This document shows, one piece after another, positions 27,077 through 58,989 of a stretch of 64,000 nucleotides of DNA; position 1 is the stretch's first letter; every line of letters begins with the position of its first letter. A model generated the notes under the pieces. It was given only the letters and a program-made list of their open reading frames with translations, ran no database searches and had not been told where the DNA came from. The stretch comes from an uncultured Pseudomonadales bacterium (lineage in GTDB: Bacteria; Patescibacteriota; Microgenomatia; UBA1400; PJMF01), in NCBI GenBank assembly GCA_964645645.1, contig CAZYBC010000005.1, forward strand, positions 702 through 64,701. The letters run 5' to 3'. The position numbers were made by a program, and so were the translations under genes.

Positions 27077-27116
27077 AATAGGGTACAATATACTTATTAA
27101 TATAACAGATGCCAAG

Positions 27117-33962: not shown

Positions 33963-33963
33963 A

Positions 33964-35457: not shown

Positions 35458-35469
35458 TCAATTCTATAT

Positions 35470-41164: not shown

Positions 41165-41167
41165 CCT

Positions 41168-42862
41168 ATGAAAAAATCTTTAGCTTTAACAAAAAAAGAA
41201 TGTTTAATTTTTACTTTAATTCTTTTAATTGCCTTTCTAGTTCGGTTTATTAAAATTACCACCATCCCGATCGCTTTTAATCGTGATGAGCTGGCTTTGG
41301 CTTATAATGCTTTTAGTATTGCGCAAACAGCAAGAGATGAACGGGGTAATTTTTTACCCCTTAATTTTGAATCTTTTGGCGATTGGAAACTTCCTGGTTA
41401 TATTTATAGTCTTGTGCCTTTAATCAAGATTTTTGGGTTGAATGATTTGATAGTTAAATTACCTTCATTCTTAGCTGGCTTAGGAATTATTGTCATTAGT
41501 TTTTTTCTCATGCGTTTATGGCTGGATAAAAAAGACTCAAAATTAGCTTTTATGCTAATGTTTTTTTTAAGCATTTTGCCCTGGGCGGTTCATACTTCTA
41601 GAATTGCTTATGAGGCTAATTTAGCTTTATTTTTATTTAGTTTAGGAATATTAAGTTTTGAATTATTTAAAGAATCTTATTTGAAAGCTAAACAAATTAA
41701 ACTTTATTTAATCTGCTTAGCTGGTTTAAGCTTTTTTCTAACTTTACTGACTTATCATGGTTTTCAAATAGTTACTCCTTTATTTTTACTAGCTTTATTA
41801 ATAATTGAAAAAGAATTTTTATTAAAATTATTTAAACAAAATAAAAATGTTTTATTAATTCCAACAATTCTATTTTTATTATTAACAACACTATTTTTTC
41901 TAGCTGGCACTAAAAAAGCTAATACTGTTAAGGGCAGTGGCTTGTTAATTCTTAATCAAAGTTATCAAAACGAAATTTATGAAAAAAGAAATTTTCTTAA
42001 AAATAAACCGTTAATAGCAAAAATTTACGTTAATAGTTTATCTCTTAAATTAGCTAGTTTAAGAGATAATTTTTTTCAGACTTTTTCTTGGGATTTTTTA
42101 GTAACCAGTGGTGGTAAAAATGGCGCTCACAATATTAGTTTAATTGGTAATTTATACCCTTATGAAATAATTTTTATTTTTATAGCTTTATTTTATTTTT
42201 TTACTGAAAAAAAATTGTGGCAAAAAAAAGTTTTACTTTGGCTTATTACTGCCTCAGTTGCACCCATTTTAACCACTGCCCCAAATCACACAATCAGATT
42301 TATCGCGGGGATGATTCCTTTAGAAATTTTATCAGTCTATGGCTGTTATAAAGTTTATTTAAAATTTAAACATAAAAAATTTATAATTTTTATGTTACTT
42401 ATTACTTTAATTTACAACTGGTTTTATTATTTTGTCTCTTACTTTTTAGTTGCTCCATTAAAAGATGTTAATAGACATAACTGGGCTTTAAAAGAAATCA
42501 GTCAAGAAATTCAACAAAAAAAAGACCATTATGACTTAGTAATGATTGATGAATCTGGAACTTCTCTTTATATTTATTTGCTTTATTATTGGCAATATGA
42601 CCCTAAAAAACTTAGTAGCAATTTAGTTTATTATCCTCATGATGATGAAGGTTTCTCTCATGCTCAAGCTTTAGAAAATGTTGTTTTTGCCTTACCTAAT
42701 TTTATCGAAAATGAGAATAAAGATTATCAAAAAATTTTATATGTTTTAAAAAAATCACAAGTTCCAGAATTTATCTGGATCCAAGGTCATTATAAATATC
42801 TTAAGGAATTTAAAAATGACTATGCTAAAGAGACTTATGTCATGTTTGAATATGAAAAATAA
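41168..42862 (+). CDS. GT-C glycosyltransferase, PMT/ArnT-like ('DE' family core paralog)
   Basis: IAFNRDELALAYNAFSIAQTARDERGNFLPLNFESFGDWKLPGYIYSLVPL, and the C-terminal motif TAPNHTIRFI. Aligns with ORFs 49776 (C-terminal domain), 52174, 53871 and 55579. Confidence 0.6.
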   Translation: MKKSLALTKKECLIFTLILLIAFLVRFIKITTIPIAFNRDELALAYNAFSIAQTARDERGNFLPLNFESFGDWKLPGYIYSLVPLIKIFGLNDLIVKLPSFLAGLGIIVISFFLMRLWLDKKDSKLAFMLMFFLSILPWAVHTSRIAYEANLALFLFSLGILSFELFKESYLKAKQIKLYLICLAGLSFFLTLLTYHGFQIVTPLFLLALLIIEKEFLLKLFKQNKNVLLIPTILFLLLTTLFFLAGTKKANTVKGSGLLILNQSYQNEIYEKRNFLKNKPLIAKIYVNSLSLKLASLRDNFFQTFSWDFLVTSGGKNGAHNISLIGNLYPYEIIFIFIALFYFFTEKKLWQKKVLLWLITASVAPILTTAPNHTIRFIAGMIPLEILSVYGCYKVYLKFKHKKFIIFMLLITLIYNWFYYFVSYFLVAPLKDVNRHNWALKEISQEIQQKKDHYDLVMIDESGTSLYIYLLYYWQYDPKKLSSNLVYYPHDDEGFSHAQALENVVFALPNFIENENKDYQKILYVLKKSQVPEFIWIQGHYKYLKEFKNDYAKETYVMFEYEK

Positions 42863-44348
42863 ATTGTTATTTTTTCTTTTATTTTTAATTATTATTACGA
42901 GAATATTTTTTCTATTAGATCAAAACGTTAATTTTGTTTTTGATCAAGGAAAAGATTCTTTAGCAATTTTAAATATTTGGTTAAATAAAAAACCTACTTT
43001 AATAGGTCCTTGGACAAGTATCCCAGGACTTTTTTTTGGGCCAGCTTATTATTACTTATTATTACCGTTTTATATGTTGGCTAATGGCAATCCTGTTTTT
43101 GCTACAATCCCGATGATTCTTTTATTGTGTATTGCTGTAATTATCTTTTATTATAAATTTAATAAAACAGCAGCTTTAATTTTAGCCACTTCTACTATTG
43201 CCTGGACTATTACAACTAGTGCTTGGAATCCATTCCCAATGGTTTTAATTAGTACTTTAATTTTATATTTTTTAGAAAAAATAAAGGGTAAAAATTTAAA
43301 AAAGGATTATTTTTTTATTGGCTTAACAGCTTCTTTAGGATTTCATTTTTCAACAGCTTTTGCTATTTTTTATCCAATTATTATTGCTTTAGTTTTATTA
43401 CTCAATAAAATTAAAATAAATTTTAAAAAGATTTTCTTATTAATGATGGGATTTTTTCTTCCATTTATACCTCAATTAATTTTTGAAATTAGACATAATT
43501 TCATCCAAACAAAAGCAATCTTAGAATATTTAAAAAATGGAGAAAGTCAAAATTTGGGTTTAAGTAAATTATTATTAGTACTCAAAGACTCATTATCTGA
43601 ATTTAAAGTTTACAGTTTACCTAAATTTAATTTTTTCAATATTAAAATAAGCGATATTTTACTATTAATTTTATCTATTTATAGTCTTTATTATTTATTA
43701 AAATTTAAGAATAAATTGAACAAAAAAAAGATTATAGAAACCTTAATCTGGCTTTTTATTCCTTTTGCTTCTTACTATTTTTTACATTTCAATTTTTGGT
43801 ATTTGTTAGGCTTAGCTCCCATTGTGATTTTAACAGTTAGTAAAATTATTAATAAATTACCTATAAGTTTAAAAAATATAATTTTATTTTTATTTATTCT
43901 GAATCCATTATTTCAATTAAATAATTATTATCAAAATAAAAATTTCATTAATAATACTGGTGATTTTTTAAAAAACAAAACAGAAGTTATTAGTTACATT
44001 TATCAGCAAGCTAATAGTCAGTCTTTTGCTTCTTATCAATATGAACCTGCCATTTATGACTACAGCTATCAATATTTATTCTTCCAAAAAGCTCTAACTG
44101 GTGAAAAATTACCTTTTGAATTTTCTTATAAACCAGGAGAAATTAGCTATATTAAAGAGAAACCAGAATTATTACAATATTTTGCTAATAAAATATATCA
44201 AGAGCCTCCTCAAAAAATATTTTTTATCGTTGAAAAAGCAGAAAATGAGGCTTATTTAAAATCATGGTGGAATCAACAACATTATTCTAAAATTATTTCT
44301 GAAAGAAATTTTGGATCTAGTATAAAAGTATATGAAGCCTTACCATAA
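42852..44348 (+). CDS. Polytopic membrane protein, 'DQxRD...GPxYYY' family, paralog 3 of 4
   Basis: FVFDQGKDSLAILNIWLNKKPTLIGPWTSIPGLFFGPAYYYLLLPFYML. The ORF-track start at 42816 overlaps the upstream gene by 47 bp, so the internal MKNKLLFF start was chosen. Uncertain. Confidence 0.45.
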   Translation: MKNKLLFFLLFLIIITRIFFLLDQNVNFVFDQGKDSLAILNIWLNKKPTLIGPWTSIPGLFFGPAYYYLLLPFYMLANGNPVFATIPMILLLCIAVIIFYYKFNKTAALILATSTIAWTITTSAWNPFPMVLISTLILYFLEKIKGKNLKKDYFFIGLTASLGFHFSTAFAIFYPIIIALVLLLNKIKINFKKIFLLMMGFFLPFIPQLIFEIRHNFIQTKAILEYLKNGESQNLGLSKLLLVLKDSLSEFKVYSLPKFNFFNIKISDILLLILSIYSLYYLLKFKNKLNKKKIIETLIWLFIPFASYYFLHFNFWYLLGLAPIVILTVSKIINKLPISLKNIILFLFILNPLFQLNNYYQNKNFINNTGDFLKNKTEVISYIYQQANSQSFASYQYEPAIYDYSYQYLFFQKALTGEKLPFEFSYKPGEISYIKEKPELLQYFANKIYQEPPQKIFFIVEKAENEAYLKSWWNQQHYSKIISERNFGSSIKVYEALP

Positions 44349-44354
44349 ATTTAT

Positions 44355-45245
44355 ATGACTCTTTCTGTTGTTATTAATACTAAAAATGCAGAAGCTACTT
44401 TAAAAAAGTGTTTGGATTCAGTGAAGTTTGCTGATGAAATTATTATTGTTGATATGCATAGTCAAGATAAAACTCTTGAAATTGCTCAAAAATATACCAA
44501 TAAAATTTTTACTTATAAAGATGTCGGGTTTGCTGATCCAGCCAGAAACTTTGCTTTGTCTAAAGCTACTCAAAATTGGATTTTAATTGTTGATGCTGAT
44601 GAAGAAGTGCCTATTAGTTTAAAAAATAAAATTTTGGCTTTAATTGCTGAATCCAATAATACGCCAGCCTACTTTATTGCTCGTAAAAATATTATTTGGG
44701 ATAAATGGATTGAACATACTGGCTGGTGGCCAGATTACCAATTAAGATTTTTTAAACGAGGTGCTATTGATTATCCAGCTAAGATTCACACTAAGCCTCA
44801 AGCGCCTCAAAACAGTCAGTTTTTACCAGCCCAAGAGGATTTAGCCTTAATTCATTATAATTATCCAACTATTAGTAGCTTTTTAGAAAAAATGAATCGC
44901 TATACGGACTTAACTGACATTGCAGTTAATAAATTTGACGCTCAAGCTGTTTTAGATAAATTTTTTGCTGAATTTTTGGCTAGATATTTTGTTCATCAAG
45001 CTTATTTAGATGATTTAAATGGAACCGCCTTAGCTTTAGCTCAAAGTAGTTATGAATTATTTACCTATCTAAAAGCTTGGGAAAAACAAGGTTATAAATT
45101 TAATAAAAATAATCAACAAACTACTTTTGCCTTTTGGCGTAAGTTAAATAAAGATCTTAACTATTATTTAGCTGATTTCCAGGTTAAAAACACCACGGGC
45201 TTTAGTAAATTTTATTGGCAAATTAGACGTAAATTTAAGATTTAA
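44355..45245 (+). CDS. GT2 glycosyltransferase, WaaE/KdtX-like (paralog 1 of 3)
   Basis: LSVVINTKNAEATLKKCLDSVKFADEIIIVDMHSQDKT...ILIVDADEEVP follows the LSVVIxTKNEExxIxxCLxSVxWADEIIVVDSGSTDxT pattern of this GT2 subfamily. Confidence 0.7.
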   Translation: MTLSVVINTKNAEATLKKCLDSVKFADEIIIVDMHSQDKTLEIAQKYTNKIFTYKDVGFADPARNFALSKATQNWILIVDADEEVPISLKNKILALIAESNNTPAYFIARKNIIWDKWIEHTGWWPDYQLRFFKRGAIDYPAKIHTKPQAPQNSQFLPAQEDLALIHYNYPTISSFLEKMNRYTDLTDIAVNKFDAQAVLDKFFAEFLARYFVHQAYLDDLNGTALALAQSSYELFTYLKAWEKQGYKFNKNNQQTTFAFWRKLNKDLNYYLADFQVKNTTGFSKFYWQIRRKFKI

Positions 45246-45274
45246 AATTATTTTAGAATTACTATAATATAATA

Positions 45275-46840
45275 ATGACAATCTCAAACAATAATACTTC
45301 AAAAAAAACTTGGCTTTTACTTTTTATCATTTTTTTATTATCAATTTGTTTACGTTATTTAGCTTTACTTGATTATAAAATTGTTTTTTGGTTTGATCAA
45401 AGTCGTGATGCATATATTTCTCAACAAATTATTAATAATCATGATCTAAAAATATTAGGTCCTTCGGCAAGTGGTACCAATGATACTATTTATCATGGTG
45501 TATTGTATTATTATTTTATTGCTCCATTTTATATTTTAAGTAAAGGTAATCCCTTATTACCAGCTTTAGCTTTATCTATTTTAGGAGCAACCGGAATTTT
45601 TCCATTATTTTTCTTTACAAAAAGTATTTTTAAATCTGCTAAAGTGTCTTGGCTATCTGTAATATTTTTTTCTTTTTCAGTAGAAATTGTTCAACTTTCG
45701 CATTGGCTATCTAACCCTTCTCTAGCTGTTATGCCATTAATTATTTTTTATTGGTCACTTTGGGAAAGTGCTTATCAAAATAAAAATAAATTTTTAATTC
45801 CTTTAGCACTTTCTTTAGGTGTTTGTTTACAAAGTGCTATTTGGCTTATATATCTTATGGGTTCATTATTAATTGCTATTATCTATAATTATGATCATTT
45901 TGGTAAAAAATCTCTTTTCATCAAATGGAAAAAATTATTATTGCCTTCTTTTTTAGTTATATTATTGATTTCAACTATTATATTAGGCCAAATTATGCTT
46001 TGGAAAAACCATGTTTTTAGTTTAAAAAATTTGCATGGTAATAATAGTCAAATCAGTATTGCTAATCAGATTGTTGGTTTATCCAATATGTATATAACTA
46101 AAGTATTACAGAGCATAACACCGTCTTCTCCGATTATTTCTTTAGTTTTATTTATTGTAATTTTATTGCAACTTACTAAGTTGAATCATCCTCAAAAACT
46201 TTTTTTCTTGTCTTGGATTTTGGCTCCTTTTTGGCTTTATATTATTGAATGGCGTAATAGTTTACATATGTTAATTTCTTTAGAAACAGTTTTATTTATT
46301 TTATTATCGGTTGCTTTAAACCAATTATGGAAAGACAAAAGACCTGTCCTAAAATGTTTAATGTTAATACTAGTAATAATTTTTATAATAACTAATTTAG
46401 TTCAATTACAAAAATATCGTAATAATGCTAGTAGCATTTTTTCTCCACAGCAAGGAACTGATTTATCAATGCAAAGAGAATTAATTGAATATACTTATAA
46501 AAAAGCCAATGGTCAAAATTTTTCTTTTTCAGTTTTTAGTAATCCATATGGATATTTTATTACTTGGGCTTATTTATATAATTGGTACAATATAGAACAG
46601 AATAAAAATTATTTACCCACTTATATAGGCCCAGATCAAAATGGATTATTTGGAAAAGAATTATTACCACGTAGTGATGTGCCAAAAAATAATTTACATT
46701 TTACTATCATAGAGCCTAATTTAGGCAGTGTTCCTGAAATTATTTTTCAAAAATTTATGCAAGAACAGGATTCTTTTGGAGAAGTAATTGAAAAACAACA
46801 ATTTGGTAGTACGCTCATTTATATGAGGCATGTTAATTAA
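45275..46840 (+). CDS. Polytopic membrane protein, 'DQxRD...GPxYYY' family, paralog 4 of 4
   Basis: VFWFDQSRDAYISQQIINNHDLKILGPSASGTNDTIYHGVLYYYFIAPFYIL. Confidence 0.45.
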   Translation: MTISNNNTSKKTWLLLFIIFLLSICLRYLALLDYKIVFWFDQSRDAYISQQIINNHDLKILGPSASGTNDTIYHGVLYYYFIAPFYILSKGNPLLPALALSILGATGIFPLFFFTKSIFKSAKVSWLSVIFFSFSVEIVQLSHWLSNPSLAVMPLIIFYWSLWESAYQNKNKFLIPLALSLGVCLQSAIWLIYLMGSLLIAIIYNYDHFGKKSLFIKWKKLLLPSFLVILLISTIILGQIMLWKNHVFSLKNLHGNNSQISIANQIVGLSNMYITKVLQSITPSSPIISLVLFIVILLQLTKLNHPQKLFFLSWILAPFWLYIIEWRNSLHMLISLETVLFILLSVALNQLWKDKRPVLKCLMLILVIIFIITNLVQLQKYRNNASSIFSPQQGTDLSMQRELIEYTYKKANGQNFSFSVFSNPYGYFITWAYLYNWYNIEQNKNYLPTYIGPDQNGLFGKELLPRSDVPKNNLHFTIIEPNLGSVPEIIFQKFMQEQDSFGEVIEKQQFGSTLIYMRHVN

Positions 46841-46918
46841 TTCAAAATAAATTCTTGGTGCTTATTATTAGTATTTTTACCCCAAAAATCACTATTTAAG
46901 GTATAATGAAATAAGATT

Positions 46919-47833
46919 ATGAATGAAATTGCTATTATTCTAGTTGACTATAATAGTCATGATGAAACTCGAGCTTGTTTAGCTTCACTCTTAGCTTTAA
47001 AAAGACAAAATTTTAATTTTAAAATTTTTGTTATTGATAATGGTTCAAAAACTCTACTAAAGCTGACTAAAAAAGAGTCAGATAATAAAATAGAGGTATT
47101 AAGAAGTGAAGCAAACTTAGGTTTTACTGGAGGTAATAATTTAGGCATTAGTTATGCCATTAAAAATTATAATCCAGATTATTTATTATTGCTTAATAAT
47201 GATACGCGCATAGAAGAAAATTTTTTAACTCACTTATATTTAGCTTTAAAAAATAATACTAAAGCAGGTATTGCTGCTAGTAAAATTTATTTTGAAAAGA
47301 ACCATGAATTTCATAAAAAAAGTTATGCTCGGCATCAACGTGGCAAGGTGTTATGGTATGCTGGCGGCAGCATTGATTGGTTAAACTTATTAGCTTTTCA
47401 TCGAGGGGTAGATGAACTTGATTATGGCCAATTTGATCAACAAACAACTAGTGATTTTGCCACTGGTTGTTCAATGTTAATTAAAAGAGAATTAATTGAA
47501 AAAGTAGGTTTATTAGATAAACGCTATTTTTTATATTTTGAAGATGTTGATTATTCTTTAAGAGCTAAAAGGCATGGTTATCAACTTTTATTTGTTCCTC
47601 AAAGTATTGTTTGGCATATTAACGCTGGTTCTAGTGAAGGGGCAGGAGGAAATACCTCTATTTATTATCAAAACAGAAACCGCTTATTATTTGCTTTTAA
47701 ATTTGGTAGTTTTAGAAATAAATTAACTGCTTTAAAAATTCTATTTAATTTACTAAAAGATCGTCATCCTATTAAACGTCAAGCTGGGTGGGATTTTATT
47801 CTGCAAAGATTTGGTAAACAAATCATAGTTTAA
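46919..47833 (+). CDS. GT2 glycosyltransferase (WbbL/rhamnosyltransferase-like subfamily)
   Basis: IAIILVDYNSHDETRACLASL...IFVIDNGSK...LLLNNDTRIEE...YFEDVDYSLRA. This is GT2 with a DxD and a second acidic motif, at a WbbL-like size. Confidence 0.65.
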   Translation: MNEIAIILVDYNSHDETRACLASLLALKRQNFNFKIFVIDNGSKTLLKLTKKESDNKIEVLRSEANLGFTGGNNLGISYAIKNYNPDYLLLLNNDTRIEENFLTHLYLALKNNTKAGIAASKIYFEKNHEFHKKSYARHQRGKVLWYAGGSIDWLNLLAFHRGVDELDYGQFDQQTTSDFATGCSMLIKRELIEKVGLLDKRYFLYFEDVDYSLRAKRHGYQLLFVPQSIVWHINAGSSEGAGGNTSIYYQNRNRLLFAFKFGSFRNKLTALKILFNLLKDRHPIKRQAGWDFILQRFGKQIIV

Positions 47834-47837
47834 ATTT

Positions 47838-48665
47838 ATGAAAAAAACTCTTAGCGCCATTATTATTGCTAAAAATGAAGCTTTAATGTTAGAAGCTTGT
47901 TTAAAAACTTTATCTTGGTGTGACGAAATTATTTTAATTGACAGTGGCTCAACCGATCAAACTCAAAGCATTGCCAAAAAATATCAAGCTAAAATTGTTG
48001 AATTTACTCATCATTCTTTTGCTAAATTAAGAGAAAAAGGCGCTCAAAGTGCTACTAAAGATTATCTTTTTTATGTTGACGCTGACGAAAGAGTTACTCC
48101 TCAGTTAGCTAAAGAAATTTTAACTGTTTTAGAAAAAACTGAAGCCAAAGTTCTAAAAATTAAAAGACAAAATATTTGTTATGGTCAAGCTTTAACTCTA
48201 GGTGGATGGGAAAAAGATTTTGTTACCAGAATTTTTGCCAAAGACAGTCTTAAAGGTTGGCAGGGTGAAATTCATGAAAGTCCCATTTTTAGCCAAGAAG
48301 TTACAACTTTAAATTCTAGTTTAATCCACTTAACCCATCGCTCTACTGAAGATAATCTACTTAAAAGCGCTGCTTGGACAAAAAAAGAAGCCCAATTACT
48401 TTATGAGGCAGGAATAAAACCAGTTACTTTTTTAACTTTACTGCGTAAAGGAGTAATGGAATTTATTCGTCGAGCTATTTTTCAGAAAGGTTATCAAGAT
48501 GGTTTGGTGGGTTTAATTGAAGCTTTAGTTCAAGGTATTAATCGAATTTTTGTTTATATTCAAGTTTGGGAATTACAACAACAACCATCTCTTAATCAAA
48601 AATATCAACAAGCAGAAAATAAAATTAGCAAATCATGGGCAGAAACAAAGAATCAACTTAAATAA
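47838..48665 (+). CDS. GT2 glycosyltransferase, WaaE/KdtX-like (paralog 2 of 3)
   Basis: LSAIIIAKNEALMLEACLKTLSWCDEIILIDSGSTDQT...FYVDADERVTP. Confidence 0.7.
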   Translation: MKKTLSAIIIAKNEALMLEACLKTLSWCDEIILIDSGSTDQTQSIAKKYQAKIVEFTHHSFAKLREKGAQSATKDYLFYVDADERVTPQLAKEILTVLEKTEAKVLKIKRQNICYGQALTLGGWEKDFVTRIFAKDSLKGWQGEIHESPIFSQEVTTLNSSLIHLTHRSTEDNLLKSAAWTKKEAQLLYEAGIKPVTFLTLLRKGVMEFIRRAIFQKGYQDGLVGLIEALVQGINRIFVYIQVWELQQQPSLNQKYQQAENKISKSWAETKNQLK

Positions 48666-48668
48666 AAT

Positions 48669-49772
48669 ATGAAAATTGCCCTTTATTCACCTTATTTACC
48701 CAATCATTTTGGTGGAGGTGAACATTATTTACTTAATGTTGCTTTAGCTTTAGCTCAAGAGCATCAAGTTTATGTAGCGATTAACGCTAAGAATAAATTA
48801 GATGCAACTAAATTGGCTAAAATTAAAACGCAATATGAACAATTTTTAGCTCAAAAATTAAATAATATTACTTTTATAGAAACTCCTCTTGGTAGTGCCG
48901 CCAATTTTTTAAAAAAATTATTTTGGACTAAACAATTTGACTGTTTATATTATCAAACTGATGGTAGTTTATTTTTTAGTTTAGCAAAAAAAAATATTTT
49001 GCATATCCAAATTCCTTTTACTCAAAATAAAAATAGCTTTATTGAAAGATTAAAATTAAAAAATTGGCAAGTTAAAAATACTAATAGTTTTTTTACCAAA
49101 AATGTGGTTGAAAAAAGTTGGCAAACCACAATTGATTATGTTCACCATCCTATCATTAAACTAAATACTCCAGTTACAAATCAAGTTTTTGGTCAAAAAG
49201 AAAAAATTATTTTATCTGTAGGTAGATTTTTTAGACATTTGCATAGTAAGCGCCAAGATATTTTAGTAGAAATTTTTAAACAAATGCTAAAACTTTATCC
49301 AAAACAATGCCAAAGTTGGAAATTAGTTTTAATTGGCAATGTTGAAGATGAAGCTTATGCTGCAGAAATAAAGAAAGCAGCTCAAGGTTTTCCTATTGAA
49401 ATTAAACATCAAGTAAATAGGGAAGAATTAGAACATTATTACTTAAAGTCAGCAATTTATTGGCATGCTGCTGGTTATGAAGTTGATGAAAATCTCCATC
49501 CAGAAAAAGTAGAACATTTTGGGATCACCAGTGGTGAAGCAATGTTGGCTGGGTGCTTGCCTTTACTCATTAATAAAGGCGGACAACGAGAAATTCTTGG
49601 TGATGATTTGAAAAATCTTTTGTGGCTTGGTGATTCAGATTTGATTCAAAAAACGTTATATTTTATGGAGAATAAAAAAGAACGAATTGCTTGGGCAAGT
49701 AAAGCTCAAGAACAAGCTAAAAAGTTTAATCAAAATAATTTTAGTCATATTTTAGAAAAAATGATTAATTAA
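48669..49772 (+). CDS. GT4 (GT-B fold) glycosyltransferase
   Basis: A glycos_transf_1 C-terminal domain with the EX7E motif (EHFGITSGEAMLAGCLP). The N-terminal domain has the GT-B-type MKIALYSPYLP...GGGEHY. Confidence 0.75.
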   Translation: MKIALYSPYLPNHFGGGEHYLLNVALALAQEHQVYVAINAKNKLDATKLAKIKTQYEQFLAQKLNNITFIETPLGSAANFLKKLFWTKQFDCLYYQTDGSLFFSLAKKNILHIQIPFTQNKNSFIERLKLKNWQVKNTNSFFTKNVVEKSWQTTIDYVHHPIIKLNTPVTNQVFGQKEKIILSVGRFFRHLHSKRQDILVEIFKQMLKLYPKQCQSWKLVLIGNVEDEAYAAEIKKAAQGFPIEIKHQVNREELEHYYLKSAIYWHAAGYEVDENLHPEKVEHFGITSGEAMLAGCLPLLINKGGQREILGDDLKNLLWLGDSDLIQKTLYFMENKKERIAWASKAQEQAKKFNQNNFSHILEKMIN

Positions 49773-49775
49773 TTT

Positions 49776-52184
49776 ATGTCAATTTCTGTACTCATCCCAA
49801 CTTTTAACGGTCAAAAATTATTAGCAAAAAATTTACCGGCTGTCCTAAAAGCTTTAACTAACAACGATGAATTAATTATTCTTGATGATGCAAGCACTGA
49901 TAATACTGTTTCATGGCTTAGTAATTATTTTAATTTAAGCCCAAGCCCTATTCCACAAAATTTAGCCAATCATTCTGTGGCTCAATTTTTGATTGGAACC
50001 AAACAAAAAATAAAAATTAAATTATTAGTTAATCAGCAAAATTTACGTTTTGGGCAAACGGTTAATCGAGGATTCTTAATAGCTGAAAATCAATTAGTTT
50101 GGCTTTTAAATAATGACGTGGCACCTTATCCCAATGCCCAACAATTTTTAGTCAAACATTTTAAAGATCAAACAGTTTTTGCCGTGGGTTGTTTAGAAAT
50201 AGAAAAAAATTTAGGAGGCGTTAAGGGTGGCAAAAATAAGCTTTGGTTTGACAAAGGCATCTTTATGCATAGTCGAGCTGAAGATTTTAAAACTGGGACA
50301 ACAGCATGGGCGAGTGGTGGTAGTGCCATGTTTGATAAAGAAAAATGGTTAAAAATTGGTGGATTTGATAAACGTTTTTATCCAGCTTATTGGGAAGATA
50401 TTGATCTTTCTCAAACGGCTAAAGAACATCATTGGCAAATTTTATTTGAAGAAAAAGCAATAGTTAATCATAACCATGAATCCACTAACGCTGATGTTTT
50501 TGGTCAAGCTCAAATAGAAAAAATTAGCTGGAAAAATGCTCAGAAATTTGTTTTTAAACATGGCACTATCTGGCAAAAACTAGCTAATTTACTGTGGCGT
50601 CCTTATTGGCTTTATCAGAGACAGAAAAAAAACAAATGGCAAATTTTAGTTTTTTTAGGTATTTTTATACTAGCGTCTATTTTAAGATTTTATCAATTGG
50701 GGAAAGTTCCTCATGGGATGACCTGGGATGAAGCAGCTATTGGATATAATGGTTTTGCTATTCTTAATACTCGAAGAGATGAATGGTTGGTAAGATTGCC
50801 AATTTCCTTTAAATCTTTTGGTGATTTTAAAGCTCCGCTAGCTATTTATCTTAATGGTATTTTTACTCACTTTTTAGGCATGAACTTGACTGCTGTTAGA
50901 ATGCCTTTTGCTTTAGCAGGGGTTGCTTCAGTAGTAGGAATTTTTCTGTTGGCACAAACAATGGCTGAATTTTTTAAATTAAAAACTATTCAAGGTTTAA
51001 AATGGCCATTTTGGGCAATATTAGGCTTAAGTCTTTCACCTTGGCATTTACATTTTTCAAGAATTGGCTTTGAATCGGGTTTAGCTTTAATGTTTATTAT
51101 TTATGCTTGTTACTTTTTATTTAAACTTTTTCTTGAATCAGAAAATAATTTTTTTAAAATCAATTTTTGGGCTGGCCTAGCATTCACTAGCTTTGTGGCG
51201 AGTCTTTATACCTATCATAGCAGTAAGATTTTTTTACCTTTATTTGCTTTATTGTTTTTAATTTTATTTTTTAAACATATTAAAAAACTTTGGTTAAAAA
51301 TTTTACCAGCCAGTTTATTTAGCTTAACCTTACTTTATCCTTTAATTAAAGATTCTATTTGGGGAGAAGGAATGACTAGAGCTAATTCATTAATTTTTAG
51401 TGAAAAGCTAAATTTTTTTCAATTAGCAGGCAAAATCATTACTCAATTACTTGCTCATTTATCTCCAGCCTTTTTATTTTTAGGTCAAACTGATACGTTA
51501 AGACATGGCCCAGGTAAATTAGCGGTCTTATTACCTGGCTCAATTATTCTCATTATTTTGGCCTGCTATTTTTTGTTAACTAAAAAATTTTCTAGCACTA
51601 AGAAAAAAATGTTTCAATTTTTATTAGGCTGGCTAATGATCGGTTTAATTCCTGCGGCTTTAGCTACTCCAGTTCCACATAGTAATCGTGCTTTATTAGC
51701 TTTACCAGCAATTATTTTAGGTTTAAGTTTAACACTAAGTTATCTTCGTTCTAAATTGATAATTGGGCTTTTTGTTATCATACAAAGTCTAAGTTTCATA
51801 GCTTATCTTCAATATTATTATCAAGATTTTGCTAAATTATCTGCCAATGATTTTAAAGATGGTTATTTAGAAATAATGGCAATCACTCAAGAATATGAAA
51901 AAGGTCTTAATGGCAAACCCAAAGTAGATAAAATCATTTTTACTAATGATTATGGCCAAGCTTATATTTATGCTTTATTTGTTAGACAAACTAATCCAAT
52001 TTGGTATCAAGGTGGTTCATTAATCAAATATGAATTTAAAGATGATGTTAATGTTGGAGATTTAAGCCGTAACAATAGCTTGATTATTGGTAGTAATAGT
52101 GATGATTTACCCACTGAAAAAGCTGATCATCTAGTTTATGGTAGTGACAATCAGGTAAAATTTAAAGCATTCTATGTTAAATAA
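49776..52184 (+). CDS. Bifunctional fusion: N-terminal cytoplasmic GT2 domain + C-terminal GT-C (PMT/ArnT-like 'DE' family) membrane domain
   Basis: Residues 1-~270 hold GT2 motifs: ISVLIPTFNGQKLL...LIILDDASTDNT...LLNNDVAPYPN...YWEDIDLS. Residues ~280-802 have 10 or more TM segments with GMTWDEAAIGYNGFAILNTRRDEW...SFGDFKAPLAIY and the C-terminal TPVPHSNRALL motif. Confidence 0.6.
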   Translation: MSISVLIPTFNGQKLLAKNLPAVLKALTNNDELIILDDASTDNTVSWLSNYFNLSPSPIPQNLANHSVAQFLIGTKQKIKIKLLVNQQNLRFGQTVNRGFLIAENQLVWLLNNDVAPYPNAQQFLVKHFKDQTVFAVGCLEIEKNLGGVKGGKNKLWFDKGIFMHSRAEDFKTGTTAWASGGSAMFDKEKWLKIGGFDKRFYPAYWEDIDLSQTAKEHHWQILFEEKAIVNHNHESTNADVFGQAQIEKISWKNAQKFVFKHGTIWQKLANLLWRPYWLYQRQKKNKWQILVFLGIFILASILRFYQLGKVPHGMTWDEAAIGYNGFAILNTRRDEWLVRLPISFKSFGDFKAPLAIYLNGIFTHFLGMNLTAVRMPFALAGVASVVGIFLLAQTMAEFFKLKTIQGLKWPFWAILGLSLSPWHLHFSRIGFESGLALMFIIYACYFLFKLFLESENNFFKINFWAGLAFTSFVASLYTYHSSKIFLPLFALLFLILFFKHIKKLWLKILPASLFSLTLLYPLIKDSIWGEGMTRANSLIFSEKLNFFQLAGKIITQLLAHLSPAFLFLGQTDTLRHGPGKLAVLLPGSIILIILACYFLLTKKFSSTKKKMFQFLLGWLMIGLIPAALATPVPHSNRALLALPAIILGLSLTLSYLRSKLIIGLFVIIQSLSFIAYLQYYYQDFAKLSANDFKDGYLEIMAITQEYEKGLNGKPKVDKIIFTNDYGQAYIYALFVRQTNPIWYQGGSLIKYEFKDDVNVGDLSRNNSLIIGSNSDDLPTEKADHLVYGSDNQVKFKAFYVK

Positions 52185-53868
52185 AAAACAATTTATTTTG
52201 GCTTTTATTTTAATTATATTTTTTGCAGCTCTACTTCGCTTAGTGGGTTTAACAAAATTACCACCAGCTCCATATTGGGAAGAAGTCGCTTTAGGTTATG
52301 ATGCGTATAGTTTATTAAAAACTGGCAAAGATCATCACGGTCATTCTTGGCCAATTGTAGCTTTAGAATCTTTTGGTGATTATAAACCAAGTGGTTATTT
52401 TTATGCTTTAATGCCGGTCATAGCTGTTTTAGGTTTAAATGTTGAAGCAGTTCGTTTACCCAGTGCTTTAGCCGGAATTGCGATGGTGGCTGGCATGATT
52501 GTTATTAGTCAATTACTTTTTTTTCCAGATAAAAAAGATAAAAAATCTTTGTGGCCACTAATTGCTGGCTTAATTATGGCCATTTCTCCTTGGGCAATTA
52601 TATTTTCTCGCTCTGCTTGGGAGGTTAATTTAGCAACAGCCATGTTGCTTTGGGCTATTATTTTAGGCATCAAAACTTTGCGAAGTAAAAATCTAAATTA
52701 TTATTGGCCACACTTACTCTTGTTAATAACTACTTTATATACTTACCATAGTACAAGAATTACTGCTCCTTTAATTGGAATTTGGTTTTTAGTGAATTTA
52801 CTTAAACAAAAAATTATTAAGAATAAAACACAATGGATACAATTATTATTAGCCTTAAGTTTAACTTTTCTAGCTGCTTTACCAATGTTATTAGCTATGC
52901 GACAAGCAGAATTTAGAATTCGTTTTGCTCAAACCAGTGCTTTTAATAACTCATCACTGATTGAACAAAGTAATGCGGCTAAAGAGCGTTTAAATAATAG
53001 CCTTTATGCCAGACTTGTTTATCATCGTTATTGGTTTTTCCTTAGAGAAATGAGCACTAATTTTTTGAGTCATTTTAATTTGAATTTTTTATTTATCAGT
53101 GGTGATATAAATCATCGTCATTCCATTCAAATGATGGGTCAACTGTACCATATCGAAATAATTTTTTTATTTTTTGGCTTTGTCTATTTATTTGGTAGAG
53201 AGAAAAATAATTTTAATAAATTTTTCTTATTATTTTGGTTGACAGCCGCTATTTTGCCAGCCAGTTTAACTAATGCTACACCACATGCCTTGAGAATTTT
53301 ACCTAGTTTACCAGTCTTTATTTTATTAATTATTTTAGGAATTAAAGAATTTTTGAACTTAATTAAACCACTAAATTTAAATAAGTTAATCAGAATCTTC
53401 AGCATAGTTTTAATTGTTGGTCTTTATTTAGGAGAATTTACTTATTTTATTCATAGCTACTGCAAACTTTATCCTCAACAATATAGTCAGGAATGGCAAT
53501 TTGGTTATCAGGAAATGCTAAGCGCTTTAGACAACTTAAAAGAACAATATCCAGATTTACCAATTTATATGACTAGAGAACAAGGGAGACCGGCTATGTA
53601 TTATTGGTTTTATCAAAACACCGATCCACGTTTAGTTCAACAAGCCGAAGCCAGCGCATTAAAAGATCAAGGTGAATTCTTAGAATTTGCTAATATTAAA
53701 TTTATCAATGGTTTAAATTTAGCCGAAAATAAACCAGCAATTCTGGTTGGCTCACCAGCTCAAATTATTCAATATCAACAAAGCTATCCCAATCGCCAGT
53801 TAGAAATTAAGCAAACGATTAAAGACTTAAAAGAAGAAGTTATTTGGCAATTAGCCATTTCAAATTAA
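52174..53868 (+). CDS. GT-C glycosyltransferase, PMT/ArnT-like ('DE' family core paralog; EE variant)
   Basis: APYWEEVALGYDAYSLLKTGKDHHGHSWPIVALESFGDYKPSGYFYALMPV, and the C-terminal motif NATPHALRIL. Confidence 0.6.
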   Translation: MLNKKQFILAFILIIFFAALLRLVGLTKLPPAPYWEEVALGYDAYSLLKTGKDHHGHSWPIVALESFGDYKPSGYFYALMPVIAVLGLNVEAVRLPSALAGIAMVAGMIVISQLLFFPDKKDKKSLWPLIAGLIMAISPWAIIFSRSAWEVNLATAMLLWAIILGIKTLRSKNLNYYWPHLLLLITTLYTYHSTRITAPLIGIWFLVNLLKQKIIKNKTQWIQLLLALSLTFLAALPMLLAMRQAEFRIRFAQTSAFNNSSLIEQSNAAKERLNNSLYARLVYHRYWFFLREMSTNFLSHFNLNFLFISGDINHRHSIQMMGQLYHIEIIFLFFGFVYLFGREKNNFNKFFLLFWLTAAILPASLTNATPHALRILPSLPVFILLIILGIKEFLNLIKPLNLNKLIRIFSIVLIVGLYLGEFTYFIHSYCKLYPQQYSQEWQFGYQEMLSALDNLKEQYPDLPIYMTREQGRPAMYYWFYQNTDPRLVQQAEASALKDQGEFLEFANIKFINGLNLAENKPAILVGSPAQIIQYQQSYPNRQLEIKQTIKDLKEEVIWQLAISN

Positions 53869-53870
53869 AA

Positions 53871-55589
53871 ATGCTAAATAAATTAAATAATTGGTTAAAA
53901 ATTAAAAATCATCATTATTATTTAATGATGGGATTGCTATTAATCGTAGCCATTTTTTTACGTTTATATAAATTGGGCCAAATTCCTTTTGCTCTTTACA
54001 TTGATGAATTAGCCATGATGGTAGATGCTAAATCTTTAAGTTTAACTGGTGTGGACATGCACGGTAAAGCTTTTTGGCAAAGTATGTTTTTATCTTATGG
54101 TGATTACAAGTTGCCAGTTTATCTTTGGTTAGCAACTTTGAGTTTTAAATTATTTAGAATTAGTGAATTTTACTTACGCTTACCCAGTGCTGTTATTGGC
54201 ATTCTAACGATTGTCTTAACTGGTATTTTAAGTCAAAAGATTTTTAATTCAGCCAATAAAAAATCTTTGCGCCAAATAATCAGTATATTAGTAATCACGT
54301 TTAGTCCTTGGGCAATGTTGTTTTCTAGGACAGCTTTTGAAGGGCATGTTGGACAATTTTTTCTTGGTCTAGCAGTTTTAATTTGTTTTTTAGCTTTAGA
54401 AATACCTGTTTTATTTTTATTAGCCGGTCTTAGTGCTGGCTTAGCAGTTTATTCTTATTTTTCAGTACGTTTTGTTTGGCCGATTATTTATTTAGCTTTT
54501 GGAATTTTGTTTGTTTTATTTAGAAAAAAAGAAACTCAAACTAAAAATTTATTACTAATAATCACTTTTTTTGTTTTAGGTGGTATCGTTTTCTTTTTAT
54601 CCTTACAACCTTTATATAAAAGTGAATATTATCAAGCCAGTAATCAATTCCGTTATAGCACTACCTCAGTTTTAAATCTCAAAGATTGGCCTGTGGAGTC
54701 TAATATTCTCAAAGAACAAGCTGGTAACCATTTTATTGATCGTTTCTTTTATCACCGCTATGTTTTGATGGCTAGACAATTAGCTAAAAATTATGCTGAT
54801 CATTTTTCTCTTAATTATTTGTTTTTTCAAGGAGATAGTAATTTAAGACATGGTACTGGACAACATGGGCTATTTTTATGGCCACTAATTTTAGCTTTTC
54901 TTTGGGGATTAATTATTTTATTTAAAAAAAATATTAAGGCTTTTGCCTTCTTATTAATTTGGTGGATTGCTGCTGTTTTACCAGCAGCTGTACCAATGGA
55001 AACTCCTCATGCTTTAAGATCACTGAATGCTTTAATTCCTTTAAGTATTATTATTGGTTTCGGCTTAAAAGAAATAATTATTGCTTTTACTCTTAGCCAA
55101 AAAAAATCAATTAAAATTTTAGTTTCTTCTTATTTTTTACTTTTAATTTTTAGCGCTTTTGAATTTGTGACTTTTTATTTTCAACAATATCCTTATGTTA
55201 GTGCCTTATCTTGGCAAGATCATCAAAAAGAATTTGTTCAAACTTTATTAGCTAAACAAAGCCAAACAGAGAAAATTTATTTGCAAGCTTTTACCAGTGA
55301 ACCATATTTAGGTTTCTTAGCTTATGATGAAAATTTAAAAGATTTTTCTCAATTAGATTTAAGTAATAATGATTTAAAACAAATTACTAATCAAATTAAA
55401 ATTACTGATATCTATCCAGATAATTGGGAAAACATTTTTCCTTTTCAAGCTAGATTTATAGTGGCTGGTGAGTACAAGTGGTTAATGAACAATCAATGGC
55501 TTTTAGAACCAGACTATCTTAAACAGGTAGAATTTATCTATAATAGTTTAGGTGAAAAAGCTTTTGCCATTTTAATTTATGAAAGATAA
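53871..55589 (+). CDS. GT-C glycosyltransferase, PMT/ArnT-like ('DE' family core paralog)
   Basis: ALYIDELAMMVDAKSLSLTGVDMHGKAFWQSMFLSYGDYKLPVYLWL, and the C-terminal motif METPHALRSL. The ORF-track start at 53844 overlaps the upstream gene by 25 bp, so the internal ATG was chosen. Confidence 0.6.
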   Translation: MLNKLNNWLKIKNHHYYLMMGLLLIVAIFLRLYKLGQIPFALYIDELAMMVDAKSLSLTGVDMHGKAFWQSMFLSYGDYKLPVYLWLATLSFKLFRISEFYLRLPSAVIGILTIVLTGILSQKIFNSANKKSLRQIISILVITFSPWAMLFSRTAFEGHVGQFFLGLAVLICFLALEIPVLFLLAGLSAGLAVYSYFSVRFVWPIIYLAFGILFVLFRKKETQTKNLLLIITFFVLGGIVFFLSLQPLYKSEYYQASNQFRYSTTSVLNLKDWPVESNILKEQAGNHFIDRFFYHRYVLMARQLAKNYADHFSLNYLFFQGDSNLRHGTGQHGLFLWPLILAFLWGLIILFKKNIKAFAFLLIWWIAAVLPAAVPMETPHALRSLNALIPLSIIIGFGLKEIIIAFTLSQKKSIKILVSSYFLLLIFSAFEFVTFYFQQYPYVSALSWQDHQKEFVQTLLAKQSQTEKIYLQAFTSEPYLGFLAYDENLKDFSQLDLSNNDLKQITNQIKITDIYPDNWENIFPFQARFIVAGEYKWLMNNQWLLEPDYLKQVEFIYNSLGEKAFAILIYER

Positions 55590-57138
55590 GCATTTACTTA
55601 AAACTATCTTAATTGCTTTAATCGGCTTATTTGCTTTATTAAGATTAATTAACTTAGGCACTAATCCGATAATCCTTAATCGAGATGAAGCTGCCTTAGG
55701 TTATAATGCCTGGCTTTTATCTCAGACTGGTTGGGATGAATGGCATCAAAAATGGCCGTTAATGATTAAATCATTTGGTGATTATAAATTACCAGGCTAT
55801 GTTTATTTATTAGTCCCACTATTTAGAGTTTTTAGCACCAGTGATTTTTTATTAAGATTACCGGCTTGTCTTTCAGGGATAATTTTAATTTATTTGAGTA
55901 TCAATTTAGCCAAAAAATTAGGCTTAAAAAAAATTACAACATTAATTTTTGCTTTAAGTATCGCGATTACTCCGGTGTTTTTCTTTTATTCTCGCATGGC
56001 GTGGGAGGCTAATTTAGGCTTAACTTTGCTAATTGGTAGTTTGATTTGCTTATTAAATAAACAAAAATTATTTAATTACTTAGGAATAATTTTAATTTTA
56101 TTAGCTTGCTTTACTTATAATACTCCTTATCTATTATTACCTTTTATTTTAGTTGCTCTAATTTTTTGGCAAAAAATGATTGGCAAAAAAACTAATTGGC
56201 TAATTATTTTAGCCTTAGGCATAGTTTTTATTGGTACTAGTTTAATGATTTTGCCACTTACTAATCAAAAAAGCGGCATTACGATTTTTACTGATCCAAC
56301 GGTAAGAGCTAATTATATTAATTATCGAGCTGATTTTAGTGGCTTAAGTCAAAAAATTTTAGCTAATCAATATATCTATTGGGCATCACTAATGTTCAAA
56401 AATACTTTAGCCAGCTTTAGTTATCAATTTTTAGTAAAAAATGGTGGTGGTCATCCTTGGCATAGTCAGCCTGGTTTTGCTCATCTAAATAATAGTTTTT
56501 ATTTTGTCGGTTTAGCTAGTTTAGTTTTTAATTTAGGAAAAATAATCATTGATTTAATTAAACGTCGTAAAATTCAGTTGCCAATGGTTTTTTTAATTTG
56601 GCTTTTATTTTCAGCATTAATTCCCAGTGTAATTACTACAGACGCCCCACATGCCACTCGGAGTTTATTGTTTTTTTATCTATTTAATTTAATGGCCGTA
56701 ATCGGTTTAGAACAATTTTATTTAGCTGTTATTAAAAAAAAGCCAATGCTAGTGAAAACTTTATTGCTGATCTTAGCAAGTTTAATTAGTTTAGAAACTG
56801 GTCGCTATTTTTATCACTATTTTGTAAGTTATCCTCAGCAACAAACAGCTTTACAGCCTGGTTATCAAAAAGTTTTAGCAGAAGTGAAGTCAACTAATCA
56901 AGCCATTGCCGTGGTTGATCCAAGTGGGTATCAATATATTAGCACTGCTTGGTATCTAAAATTACCTACTAAAATCTTTCTTGATACAGTTATTCATCAA
57001 AATCCTAACCAAATTGGCTTGTCTTATGGAGAAAGAATTAACAATTATCACTTTATTGCCCAAAAAGAAGACCGTAATGAACAAGAAAAAATTTTAATTA
57101 TTTGGGAAAATGGGCAATGGGTTATACAATATTATTAG
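55579..57138 (+). CDS. GT-C glycosyltransferase, PMT/ArnT-like ('DE' family core paralog)
   Basis: ILNRDEAALGYNAWLLSQTGWDEWHQKWPLMIKSFGDYKLPGYVYLLVPL, and the C-terminal motif TDAPHATRSL. Confidence 0.6.
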   Translation: MKDKHLLKTILIALIGLFALLRLINLGTNPIILNRDEAALGYNAWLLSQTGWDEWHQKWPLMIKSFGDYKLPGYVYLLVPLFRVFSTSDFLLRLPACLSGIILIYLSINLAKKLGLKKITTLIFALSIAITPVFFFYSRMAWEANLGLTLLIGSLICLLNKQKLFNYLGIILILLACFTYNTPYLLLPFILVALIFWQKMIGKKTNWLIILALGIVFIGTSLMILPLTNQKSGITIFTDPTVRANYINYRADFSGLSQKILANQYIYWASLMFKNTLASFSYQFLVKNGGGHPWHSQPGFAHLNNSFYFVGLASLVFNLGKIIIDLIKRRKIQLPMVFLIWLLFSALIPSVITTDAPHATRSLLFFYLFNLMAVIGLEQFYLAVIKKKPMLVKTLLLILASLISLETGRYFYHYFVSYPQQQTALQPGYQKVLAEVKSTNQAIAVVDPSGYQYISTAWYLKLPTKIFLDTVIHQNPNQIGLSYGERINNYHFIAQKEDRNEQEKILIIWENGQWVIQYY

Positions 57139-57141
57139 AAT

Positions 57142-58981: not shown

Positions 58982-58989
58982 AGTATGTT

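Follow-up and report, generated by a model that had tools for sequence, protein, structure and literature searches.

Five genes in a 64,000-nucleotide stretch of DNA from an uncultured bacterium (assembly GCA_964645645.1, contig CAZYBC010000005.1, positions 702 to 64,701 of the forward strand), hereafter called the window, encode homologous membrane proteins of the glycosyltransferase C (GT-C) type. The source is titled Pseudomonadales in GenBank and placed by GTDB within the Patescibacteriota (Microgenomatia; UBA1400; PJMF01). The genes are named here by their start positions: 41168, 49776, 52174, 53871 and 55579. Their products are probably anciently diverged paralogs of the GT-C(A) class, serving the stepwise glycosylation of a wall glycopolymer at the outer face of the membrane. 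The basis of this reading is the homology of the proteins, their fold and topology, the conservation of their motifs, their orthology and the gene order around them; what the single residues do, which donor and acceptor are used, and that the enzymes act in turn, are proposals made below.

Homology and Conserved Motifs

The five proteins, with the 802-amino acid (aa) product of 49776 represented by residues 281–802, can be aligned over their full length with 26–28% identity and 28 invariant columns; the conserved residues of the alignment are E, D, K, R, H, G, P and W. Pairwise BLAST comparisons gave E-values from 3.8e-17 to 2.2e-52, and these full-length matches indicate that the similarity is neither due to chance nor to AT-driven low complexity. 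A first-pass annotation, made from the DNA sequence alone, had reported five such genes with a common first-loop signature and a common C-terminal motif. All five are present as open reading frames (ORFs) of the + strand with products homologous along their whole length (E down to 2.2e-52), every motif string quoted there is found in the sequences, and both motifs are positionally conserved, being co-linear in the alignment, with an AT-rich low-complexity origin ruled out. The first-loop signature is, more precisely, a loose consensus: 41168 has AY and TARD where the others have GY and TGxD, and 53871 deviates with IDE...MVDA...SYGDYK. The C-terminal motif comprises a strict H-x-x-R in all five proteins, preceded directly by P in four of them and in the form P-N-H in 41168.

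A scan of one genome per species revealed 431 loci with related genes; 82 loci were examined, namely 80 of these and two contigs found by exact match. They supplied a set of 299 relatives, and a second set consisted of 146 representatives sharing <50% identity. Residues E37, D69, K71, E150 and R374 (52174 numbering, used throughout) are 100% conserved in the 146 representatives and at least 96% conserved in the 299 relatives, the conservation of E37 being 98–100% and that of H371 97%. The conserved positions in both sets include R22 and P30 near the first transmembrane helix (TM1) and are otherwise distributed over the external loops (EL): E37 (with D/E36 before it), D53 and S66-x-G68-D69-x-K71 in EL1, R146 and E150 in EL2, Y191 in EL3, G310-D-x-N-x-R315-H316 in EL4 and P370-H371-x-x-R374 in EL5.

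Predicted Fold, Topology and Residue Roles

An AlphaFold2 model of the 52174 protein, built from a 54-sequence alignment, had a mean pLDDT of 95 and a pTM of 0.94. Foldseek comparison of this model with the PDB yielded 22 matches at E<=1e-3 with TM-scores of about 0.5. ArnT (5ezm/5f15) was the top match (E about 1.4e-7 to 1.5e-7, TM-score 0.51–0.55), followed by STT3, PglB, AglB, ALG12, Pmt4, ALG9 and EmbA/B/C (probability 1.0, E to 1e-4). The view that these proteins are GT-C transferases with ArnT as the nearest solved structure is thereby borne out (E 1.4e-7, probability 1.0), and the model places the 52174 protein in the GT-C(A) fold class.

In the model, TM1 is followed by an outer loop composed of helix 35–50, beta-hairpin 63–72 and helix 74–86, then by TM2–TM7, a second large outer loop with five short helices (245–327), TM8–TM11 and a C-terminal alpha/beta domain (residues ~440–564). 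The models of both 52174 and 49776 contain 11 predicted TM helices, arranged as 7 + 4, and the first loop helix (35–50 in 52174) opens with E36-E37. The GT-C(A) plan comprises a conserved seven-TM module, in which loop 1 carries two helices, the first bearing the catalytic base, and a variable module thereafter (PMC13503287). The presence of a seven-TM module and of a two-helix loop 1 with an acidic pair indicates that the five proteins fit this plan. The predicted cytoplasmic loops are rich in K and R (KKDKK, KQKIIKNK, GREKNNFNK), suggesting a topology with the N terminus inside, which puts all conserved polar residues on the outer loops; the C-terminal alpha/beta domain is predicted to be extracytoplasmic.

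R374 lies in a short loop (365–375) between TM9 and TM10, one or two residues ahead of helix 376–397, the tenth TM helix, and its equivalent in the 49776 model, R638, stands at the start of helix 638–655. An EL5 arginine near the N terminus of TM10 contacts the carrier phosphate in PglB (R375), STT3 (R404/R405/R459) and AglB (R426) and is conserved in TMTCs; in ArnT, Y345 is nearby and K85 contacts the carrier phosphate from EL1 (PMC7801869). ALG3 grips its donor phosphate with two residues, R280 in loop 4 and H371 in loop 5, the loop that joins TM9 to TM10 (PMC13503287). By topology rather than superposition, R315/H316 of EL4 and H371/R374 of EL5 would fit such phosphate-binding positions. 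The arginine of the PHxxR motif, for which a test of clade specificity had been suggested, is probably a superfamily feature, since by topology it would occupy the same place as the carrier-phosphate ligands of PglB, STT3, AglB and ALG3, and it has a near match in the more distant protein 17562; only the P-H context probably constitutes a signature of the family.

Each paralog would most likely transfer a sugar from a polyprenyl-monophosphate sugar donor to an acceptor on the outer face of the membrane. The [DE]-E pair that opens the first EL1 helix may supply the catalytic carboxylate, and the donor phosphate could be held by the lysine of GD[YW]K in EL1 together with R/H in EL4 and H-x-x-R in EL5.

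The product of 49776 consists of a GT-A domain of the GT2 family (aa 1–235), amphipathic linker helices and a GT-C part beginning with TM1 at residues 284–305 (AlphaFold2 pLDDT 93). Since the N terminus of the GT-C part is cytoplasmic, the fusion of a GT-A domain requires no additional TM helix. The nearest folds of this domain are ppGalNAc-T, WrtF, Listeria RmlT and chondroitin synthase. The GT2 and GT-C parts are mostly encoded by adjacent separate genes and are fused in 6 of the 82 loci, while the protein database contains at least 60 clusters of fused GT2–GT-C proteins. To our knowledge, no GT-A–GT-C fusion has been characterised. A role of the 49776 GT2 domain as the maker of an undecaprenyl-phosphate (Und-P) sugar donor was considered and rejected: it has no similarity to ArnC, DPMS or GtrB, whereas the product of 35470 has.

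Family Assignment

None of the five proteins scores above the Pfam gathering thresholds (26.1 bits for PMT_2, 22.7 bits for PMT). Against PMT_2 (PF13231), the ORF of 53871 in its mechanical form, starting at 53844, scores 25.3 bits versus the cutoff of 26.1, and the other four are without any match. Among 54 family members, 14 match PMT_2 and 2 match PMT (PF02366) at E<=0.01, so the family sits at the fringe of the PMT_2 model. The sole NCBIfam match among the five is a weak, near-full-length match of TIGR03663 to 55579 (31 bits).

A link by sequence is provided by two proteins of the window that had been listed as distant members, 17562 and 39830. The family hidden Markov model (HMM) finds them with E-values of 7e-22 and 2e-15, respectively, which confirms that assignment and ties the five paralogs to the GT39/GT83-type superfamily. 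The protein 17562 is an accepted member of PMT_2 (E 2.9e-12, 47.5 bits) and PMT (E 1.2e-10, 41.8 bits); its DE, K and R columns align with those of the family, and within one residue of the PHxxR place it reads T-V-Y-A-R-Y-L-M-P. The protein 39830 matches PMT_2 with E 1e-13 (52 bits). The family HMM also matches 21100(-), 38271 and 45275, which the earlier list did not include. The genes 21100–22650(-), 38271–39830, 42816–44348 and 45275–46840 form a second group of GT-C-like paralogs (mutual BLAST E 4e-9 to 4e-21) with weak or no PMT_2 matches (none for 45275) and an FDQxRD-like first-loop motif; they are interleaved with the genes of the five-paralog family.

Direct comparison of sequences with E. 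coli ArnT remained below significance. The family HMM gave no match at E<10, and hhalign probabilities were 1–5% for ArnT as a single sequence or with 120 homologues, the latter being all at least 76% identical and making a shallow profile (alignment probability 4.7%). One hhalign pairing, of PHALR with N-P-L-A-L-R of ArnT (338–342), was discarded as a mis-registration; that ArnT segment is cytoplasmic by helix count. In the sole HMM alignment obtained, which is weak and not significant alone, K71 of the family pairs with ArnT K85. The loop 1 of E. coli ArnT reads PDETRYAEISREMLASGDW...YFEKP, and [ST]G follows the acidic pair at a distance of 15 residues in ArnT and the family alike; K-P comes after 30 residues in ArnT versus 35 in the family, owing to a 5-residue insertion. 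The proposed resemblance of loop 1 to that of ArnT holds for pattern and co-linear position, yet lies below what sequence statistics can detect.

Like ArnT (undecaprenyl-phosphate-L-Ara4N:lipid A transferase, CAZy family GT83), the five proteins have an N-in topology, a two-helix EL1 with [DE]E-x13-[ST]G ... K-P and a C-terminal domain on the periplasmic side in ArnT, and an ArnC-like gene for an Und-P-sugar synthase is found nearby. ArnT depends for its function on two motifs of periplasmic loop 1, RYA and YFEKP (PMC5377068). Unlike ArnT, the family lacks RYA, having [DE]E-x-A-x-G-Y instead, and has SFGD[YW]K[PL] in place of YFEKP; 11 TM helices are predicted, against 13 in ArnT, EL5 carries a conserved H-x-x-R where ArnT uses Y345, and several paralogs occur per genome, in Patescibacteria. 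Within the window, no homologues of arnA/B/D/E/F and no lipid A genes were found, only the ArnC-like GT2. Given the insignificant sequence match, the altered motifs, the 11 TM helices and the lack of an arn context in the window, the five proteins are not members of the ArnT family. They belong to a known enzyme class, and relatives are already labelled in databases as GT39 or ArnT-like; the most fitting description is that of a large, divergent and uncharacterised subfamily of the PMT_2/ArnT-like GT-C clan that is specific to Patescibacteria or strongly enriched in them and is arranged as a conserved paralog series.

Orthology and Conserved Gene Order

More than 1,100 database relatives were found for the 52174 protein, the best non-identical one with ~50% identity. 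Almost all belong to Patescibacteria (Pacebacteria, Woesebacteria and Beckwithbacteria of the Microgenomates); names given to some of them are "glycosyltransferase family 39 protein," "ArnT family glycosyltransferase" or "ArnT-like." When representatives of clusters formed at 50% identity were searched with a profile of the five proteins, 5,021 of them matched at E<=1e-30 and 18,583 at E<=1e-3. Dozens of species-representative metagenome-assembled genomes titled "uncultured Pseudomonadales" carry the syntenic cluster (loci L008, L009, L011, L016–L018, L068 and others), one such isolate being named HK-STAS-PATE-16, and so do single records labelled "Methylococcaceae," "Limisphaerales" and "Vitreimonas." These titles look like artefacts of taxonomic labelling or binning errors.

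A neighbour-joining tree of the 299 members, calculated with a capped distance, contains five clades with one window paralog in each: 14 sequences with 41168, 64 with 49776, 83 with 52174, 48 with 53871 and ~51 with 55579, with 36 sequences outside. Identity is 38–45% within and 23–28% between the clades. Bootstrap values for the exact clades are 89 (41168) and 90 (52174), and 67, 15 and 9 for the rest.

The clades are also distinguished by conserved residues of the active-site loops, namely W versus R at position 35, GDxNxRH versus GGxxPWH versus GxTxTLRH in EL4, and PHALR versus PHxNR versus PHATR versus HTxR in EL5. This is the pattern expected from an old subfunctionalisation.

Gene order around the paralogs is conserved as well. 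The recurring order is GT2 (44355), GT2 (46919), GT2 (47838), GT4 (48669), GT2+GT-C (49776), then 52174, 53844 (the ORF of 53871), 55579, GT2 (57142), GT4 (57923), 58990 and 60599, with 37–70% identity between window genes and their counterparts in other loci. All four core GT-C genes are contiguous in 28 of the 82 loci and the last three in 34. Forty-nine of the examined loci have full flanks and are here called full-length; they contain 2–6 family members each, mostly 5. In these, orthologs of the genes 44355–49772 appear in the same order in 40–44 loci, and the downstream genes 57142–61753 are syntenic in 20–32. The counterpart of 41168 differs in its cluster position between genomes. In the window, four of the five GT-C genes are likewise contiguous (49776–57138), whereas six other genes separate 41168 from them, and the tandem array described in the first-pass annotation therefore applies to four genes. 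Its interpretation as an expansion with diversified specificity agrees with the clade-specific loop residues, but the set is ancient: the existence of five orthologous clades, with gene order kept in many Patescibacteria genomes, contradicts a recent or lineage-specific expansion.

The region 38271–61753 is a near-continuous run of + strand genes with gaps of -47 to +78 nt. From 48669 to 57142, that is, within the four-gene array and its immediate neighbours, the gaps are only -11 to +3 nt, suggesting, from gene spacing, one operon. A scan of 41000–60900 for promoters and terminators gave counts no different from those of shuffled sequences. ATG 53871 is a more plausible start of paralog 4 than TTG 53844, because it lies 2 nt past the stop codon of 52174 and drops an N-terminal extension not common to the paralogs. 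The mechanical start at 42816 is also probably too early; ATG 42852 (MKNKLLFF) would overlap 41168 by 11 nt, just as far as 52174 and 55579 overlap the genes before them.

Genomic Context and Proposed Pathway

The location of the GT-C genes beside genes for GT2 and GT4 enzymes, a Wzx flippase, a LytR-CpsA-Psr (LCP) ligase, Und-P-sugar synthases and nucleotide-sugar enzymes points to the assembly of a wall glycopolymer (Table 1). The product of 35470 resembles the structures of ArnC, GtrB and DPMS with E-values of 4e-16 to 6e-8, the best being ArnC 9bhc (E 4e-16). The window also encodes RmlD, three paralogs of NDP-sugar dehydratases/epimerases and UDP-glucose dehydrogenase. An LCP–Wzx–GT-C neighbourhood recurs, within differently arranged clusters, in at least 11 other loci (L017, L027, L035, L044–L046, L053, L055, L058, L059 and L065). 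This recurrence of LCP beside Wzx and GT-C suggests that the product of the cluster is attached to peptidoglycan.

In the proposed pathway, cytoplasmic GT2 and GT4 enzymes would assemble a lipid-linked glycan, which Wzx would flip across the membrane. Outside, the GT-C paralogs would extend or branch it with Und-P-sugars, each in turn adding another sugar or linkage, and the LCP enzyme would finally link the glycan to peptidoglycan. The acceptor of the GT-C paralogs could be either the flipped lipid-linked or an already wall-linked cell-wall glycopolymer.

The gene for the fusion of a GT2 with a GtrA/DPMS TM domain (22659–23855(-)) adjoins the nucleotide-sugar genes 23861, 24848, 25802, 28524 and 29404. 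The genes 32211–33962 and 58990–60615 encode a pair of YfhO/PTPS_related proteins (mutual E 1e-24) that brackets the cluster and is kept in syntenic loci. Overall, the 64 kb contain genes for at least 14 membrane proteins of a GT-C-like type.

Duplicated sets of GT-C(A) paralogs are also found in ALG3/ALG9/ALG12 (and ALG6/8/10) of the ER lumen and in the mycobacterial EmbA/B/C and AftA–D, where each paralog draws on a polyprenyl-phosphate sugar to extend a glycan by one specific sugar or linkage. ALG9/ALG12 and the family are alike in having 7 conserved TM helices, 4 variable ones and a C-terminal domain. In the arabinogalactan pathway, as in the window, a rhamnosyltransferase-type GT2 is found together with several GT-Cs and an LCP ligase. 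The family differs from ALG and Emb in that sequence similarity is not detectable, its genes are located in one operon and one paralog carries a fused GT-A domain. Three-component glycosylation systems of Gram-positive and Gram-negative bacteria (GtrABC, GacI/GacL, YfhO) consist of an Und-P-sugar GT2 synthase, a GtrA-type flippase and a GT-C, and usually one GT-C decorates the finished polymer. The window has similar components, with ArnC/GtrB-like GT2s (35470, 20323), the GT2–GtrA fusion (22659) and many GT-Cs; unlike in those systems, four or five paralogs are conserved together and the GT-C subfamily is a different one. With PMT (GT39) and TMTC1–4, the family shares DE/DD in EL1, a basic residue farther along in the second half of that loop, R...E/D in EL2 and an arginine ahead of TM10, matching the TMTC motifs M1, M2, M3 and M7 (PMC7801869). 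Unlike PMT and TMTC, it lacks MIR or TPR domains and its operon context is that of glycan or polymer assembly.

Alternative Explanations

Several observations weigh against the assembly of a wall glycopolymer by the paralogs. The LCP gene is 9 kb off and on the opposite strand, and it lies within 10 kb in only 6 of the 49 full-length loci; the ArnC-like gene 35470 is syntenic in only 2 of the 49, and no priming phosphoglycosyltransferase of the WecA/WbaP type was recognised in the window. In searches of family profiles against PDB sequences nothing was significant, ArnT being found with E 0.58 and 5.4. The residue equivalences given above follow topology and spacing, not superposed coordinates, and all members of the family are biochemically uncharacterised. 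Two of the exact clades have low bootstrap values (15 and 9 of 100), attributable to a few wandering sequences; the difference between within- and between-clade identity is still clear. A search of the literature on GT-C enzymes, mannosyltransferases or the cell envelope of Patescibacteria, or candidate phyla radiation (CPR), found nothing on the family.

The first-pass annotation had offered both successive additions to a glycan and O-glycosylation of distinct protein targets as activities. The LCP, Wzx and nucleotide-sugar context favours the wall glycopolymer as the more likely acceptor. Protein O-glycosylation is a clearly less likely alternative, in which PMT/TMTC-type enzymes would each serve their own set of secreted or surface proteins (pilins, S-layer, adhesion) or add successive sugars to a protein-linked glycan. 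It would account for the weak affinity to Pfam PMT_2/PMT (14 of 54 members at E<=0.01), for the HMM link to the PMT-type protein 17562 and for Pmt4 among the Foldseek matches, and the eukaryotic PMT and TMTC proteins are also multi-paralog families with distinct targets (PMC7801869). However, the operon context of Wzx, GT2/GT4, LCP and nucleotide-sugar enzymes is one of lipid-linked glycan or polymer assembly, no gene for a candidate target protein is conserved in the cluster among the loci compared, the window already has a separate, true PMT-like gene (17562), and ArnT and oligosaccharyltransferases stand above PMT in the structural ranking. Slightly less probable again is the modification of a membrane glycolipid or lipoglycan similar to lipoteichoic acid or lipomannan, comparable to the action of ArnT on lipid A or of YfhO/GtrII on teichoic acids. 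The lipid-modifying ArnT is the top fold match, the YfhO/PTPS-related genes 32211 and 58990 are conserved in the cluster, and the window contains an Und-P-sugar synthase and GtrA-type modules; against this, an LCP ligase, which joins polymers to peptidoglycan, repeatedly adjoins the cluster, and the window showed no gene resembling LtaS or serving lipid-anchor synthesis. Lipoglycan modification and wall-polymer assembly are not sharply separated here.

The strictly conserved adjacency of the genes, the 11-nt overlaps 49776/52174 and 53871/55579, and the EmbA–EmbB and Pmt heterodimers among the fold matches could also suggest obligate hetero-oligomers like Pmt1–Pmt2 or EmbA–EmbB, with fewer reactions than genes and some subunits mainly structural. 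This is unlikely: all five proteins keep the putative catalytic and phosphate-binding residues E37, D69, K71, R146, E150 and H..R, and overlaps of stop and start codons are commonplace in compact genomes and no proof of a complex. The window has a GC content of ~29% and K, I, L and F abound in the proteins, which speaks for shared motifs as a chance or compositional artefact of an AT-rich genome. That explanation is refuted, with a virtually negligible probability, by full-length BLAST E-values down to 2e-52, by the 96–100% conservation of motif residues in hundreds of relatives from other genomes and by the confident fold prediction. Stepwise glycosylation of a wall glycopolymer is the explanation that we favour.

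Coordinates and Other Features of the Window

Table 1. Genes and motif positions of the GT-C paralogs and of related features of the window.
Feature	Coordinates	Strand	Remarks
GT-C paralog 1 (41168)	41168-42862	+	564 aa; EL1 41285-41389 (NRDE...SFGDWK), EL2 SRIAYE 41597-41614, EL5 (A)PNHTIR 42281-42298
GT2/GT-C fusion (49776)	49776-52184	+	802 aa; GT-C part from ~aa 284
GT-A (GT2) domain of the 49776 product	49776-50480	+	N-terminal, cytoplasmic; aa 1-235; Pfam Glycos_transf_2 E 1e-17
GT-C paralog 2 (49776)	50625-52184	+	aa 284-802 of the 802-aa fusion; EL1 50727-50831 (WDE...SFGDFK), EL2 SRIGFE 51057-51074, EL5 VPHSNR 51672-51689
GT-C paralog 3 (52174)	52174-53868	+	564 aa; modelled member; EL1 52279-52386 (WEE...SFGDYK), EL2 SRSAWE 52606-52623, EL4 GDINHRH 53086-53121, EL5 TPHALR 53278-53295
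GT-C paralog 4 (53871)	53871-55589	+	572 aa from ATG 53871; mechanical ORF from TTG 53844; EL1 54003-54110, EL2 SRTAFE 54324-54341, EL5 TPHALR 55002-55019
GT-C paralog 5 (55579)	55579-57138	+	519 aa; EL1 55684-55788 (NRDE...SFGDYK), EL2 SRMAWE 55990-56007, EL4 GGGHPWH 56428-56463, EL5 APHATR 56644-56661
Distant relative (17562)	17562-19091	-	Accepted PMT/PMT_2 member (ADEAIY...NDGKTP)
Distant relative (39830)	39830-41164	+	444 aa; DE motif (ADERAW) and TM3-TM5 core only
Upstream genes	44355-49772	+	GT2 44355, second-family GT-C 45275, rhamnosyltransferase-like GT2 46919, GT2 47838, GT4 48669
Downstream genes	57142-61753	+	GT2 57142, GT4 57923, PTPS_related/YfhO-like GT-C 58990, multi-TM protein 60599
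Small GT2, ArnC/GtrB-like	20323	-	
GT2-GtrA/DPMS TM-domain fusion	22659-23855	-	Und-P-sugar synthase and putative flippase module
LCP (LytR-CpsA-Psr) ligase	30924-32069	-	
YfhO-like membrane protein	32211-33962		
Wzx/MOP flippase	33964		
ArnC/GtrB/DPMS-like polyprenyl-phosphate sugar synthase	35470		Envelope-polymer accessory genes span 30924-36180

Elsewhere in the window, the products of 19088–20320(-), 36177–38201(-), 60599–61753 and 11971–13278 had no Pfam match. A gene for a PIN-domain protein (27760–28173(-)) adjoins trmD (27069–27767), and the window also contains a pair of genes for a response regulator and a histidine-kinase fragment (16182–17503) and a gene for a PGA_cap (CapA-like) protein (14069–15082).

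Implications for the Cell Envelope of Patescibacteria

For enzymology, the paralogs represent another GT-C series with an acidic residue in EL1 and a basic residue ahead of TM10, not a new principle. Tentatively, and short of what we would call probable, the four or five paralogs, including the one with a fused cytoplasmic GT-A domain, may constitute a dedicated extracytoplasmic assembly line for an undescribed peptidoglycan-linked heteropolysaccharide characteristic of Microgenomates-type Patescibacteria, a functional analogue of mycobacterial arabinogalactan synthesis in bacteria of very small cell size and reduced genome. If this is true, a separate CAZy family would be justified, with P-H-x-x-R of EL5 as a signature donor-phosphate clamp. 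The orthologous clades, the invariant residues (E37, D69, K71, E150, H371 and R374) and the clade-specific loop residues provide concrete targets for experiments. Patescibacteria (CPR) have tiny genomes and for the most part adhere to other cells, and the chemistry of their envelope is still almost entirely unexplored. The retention of the paralog set across many species, together with the at least 14 GT-C genes in 64 kb, suggests that it likely belongs to a core envelope-glycan pathway of these bacteria.

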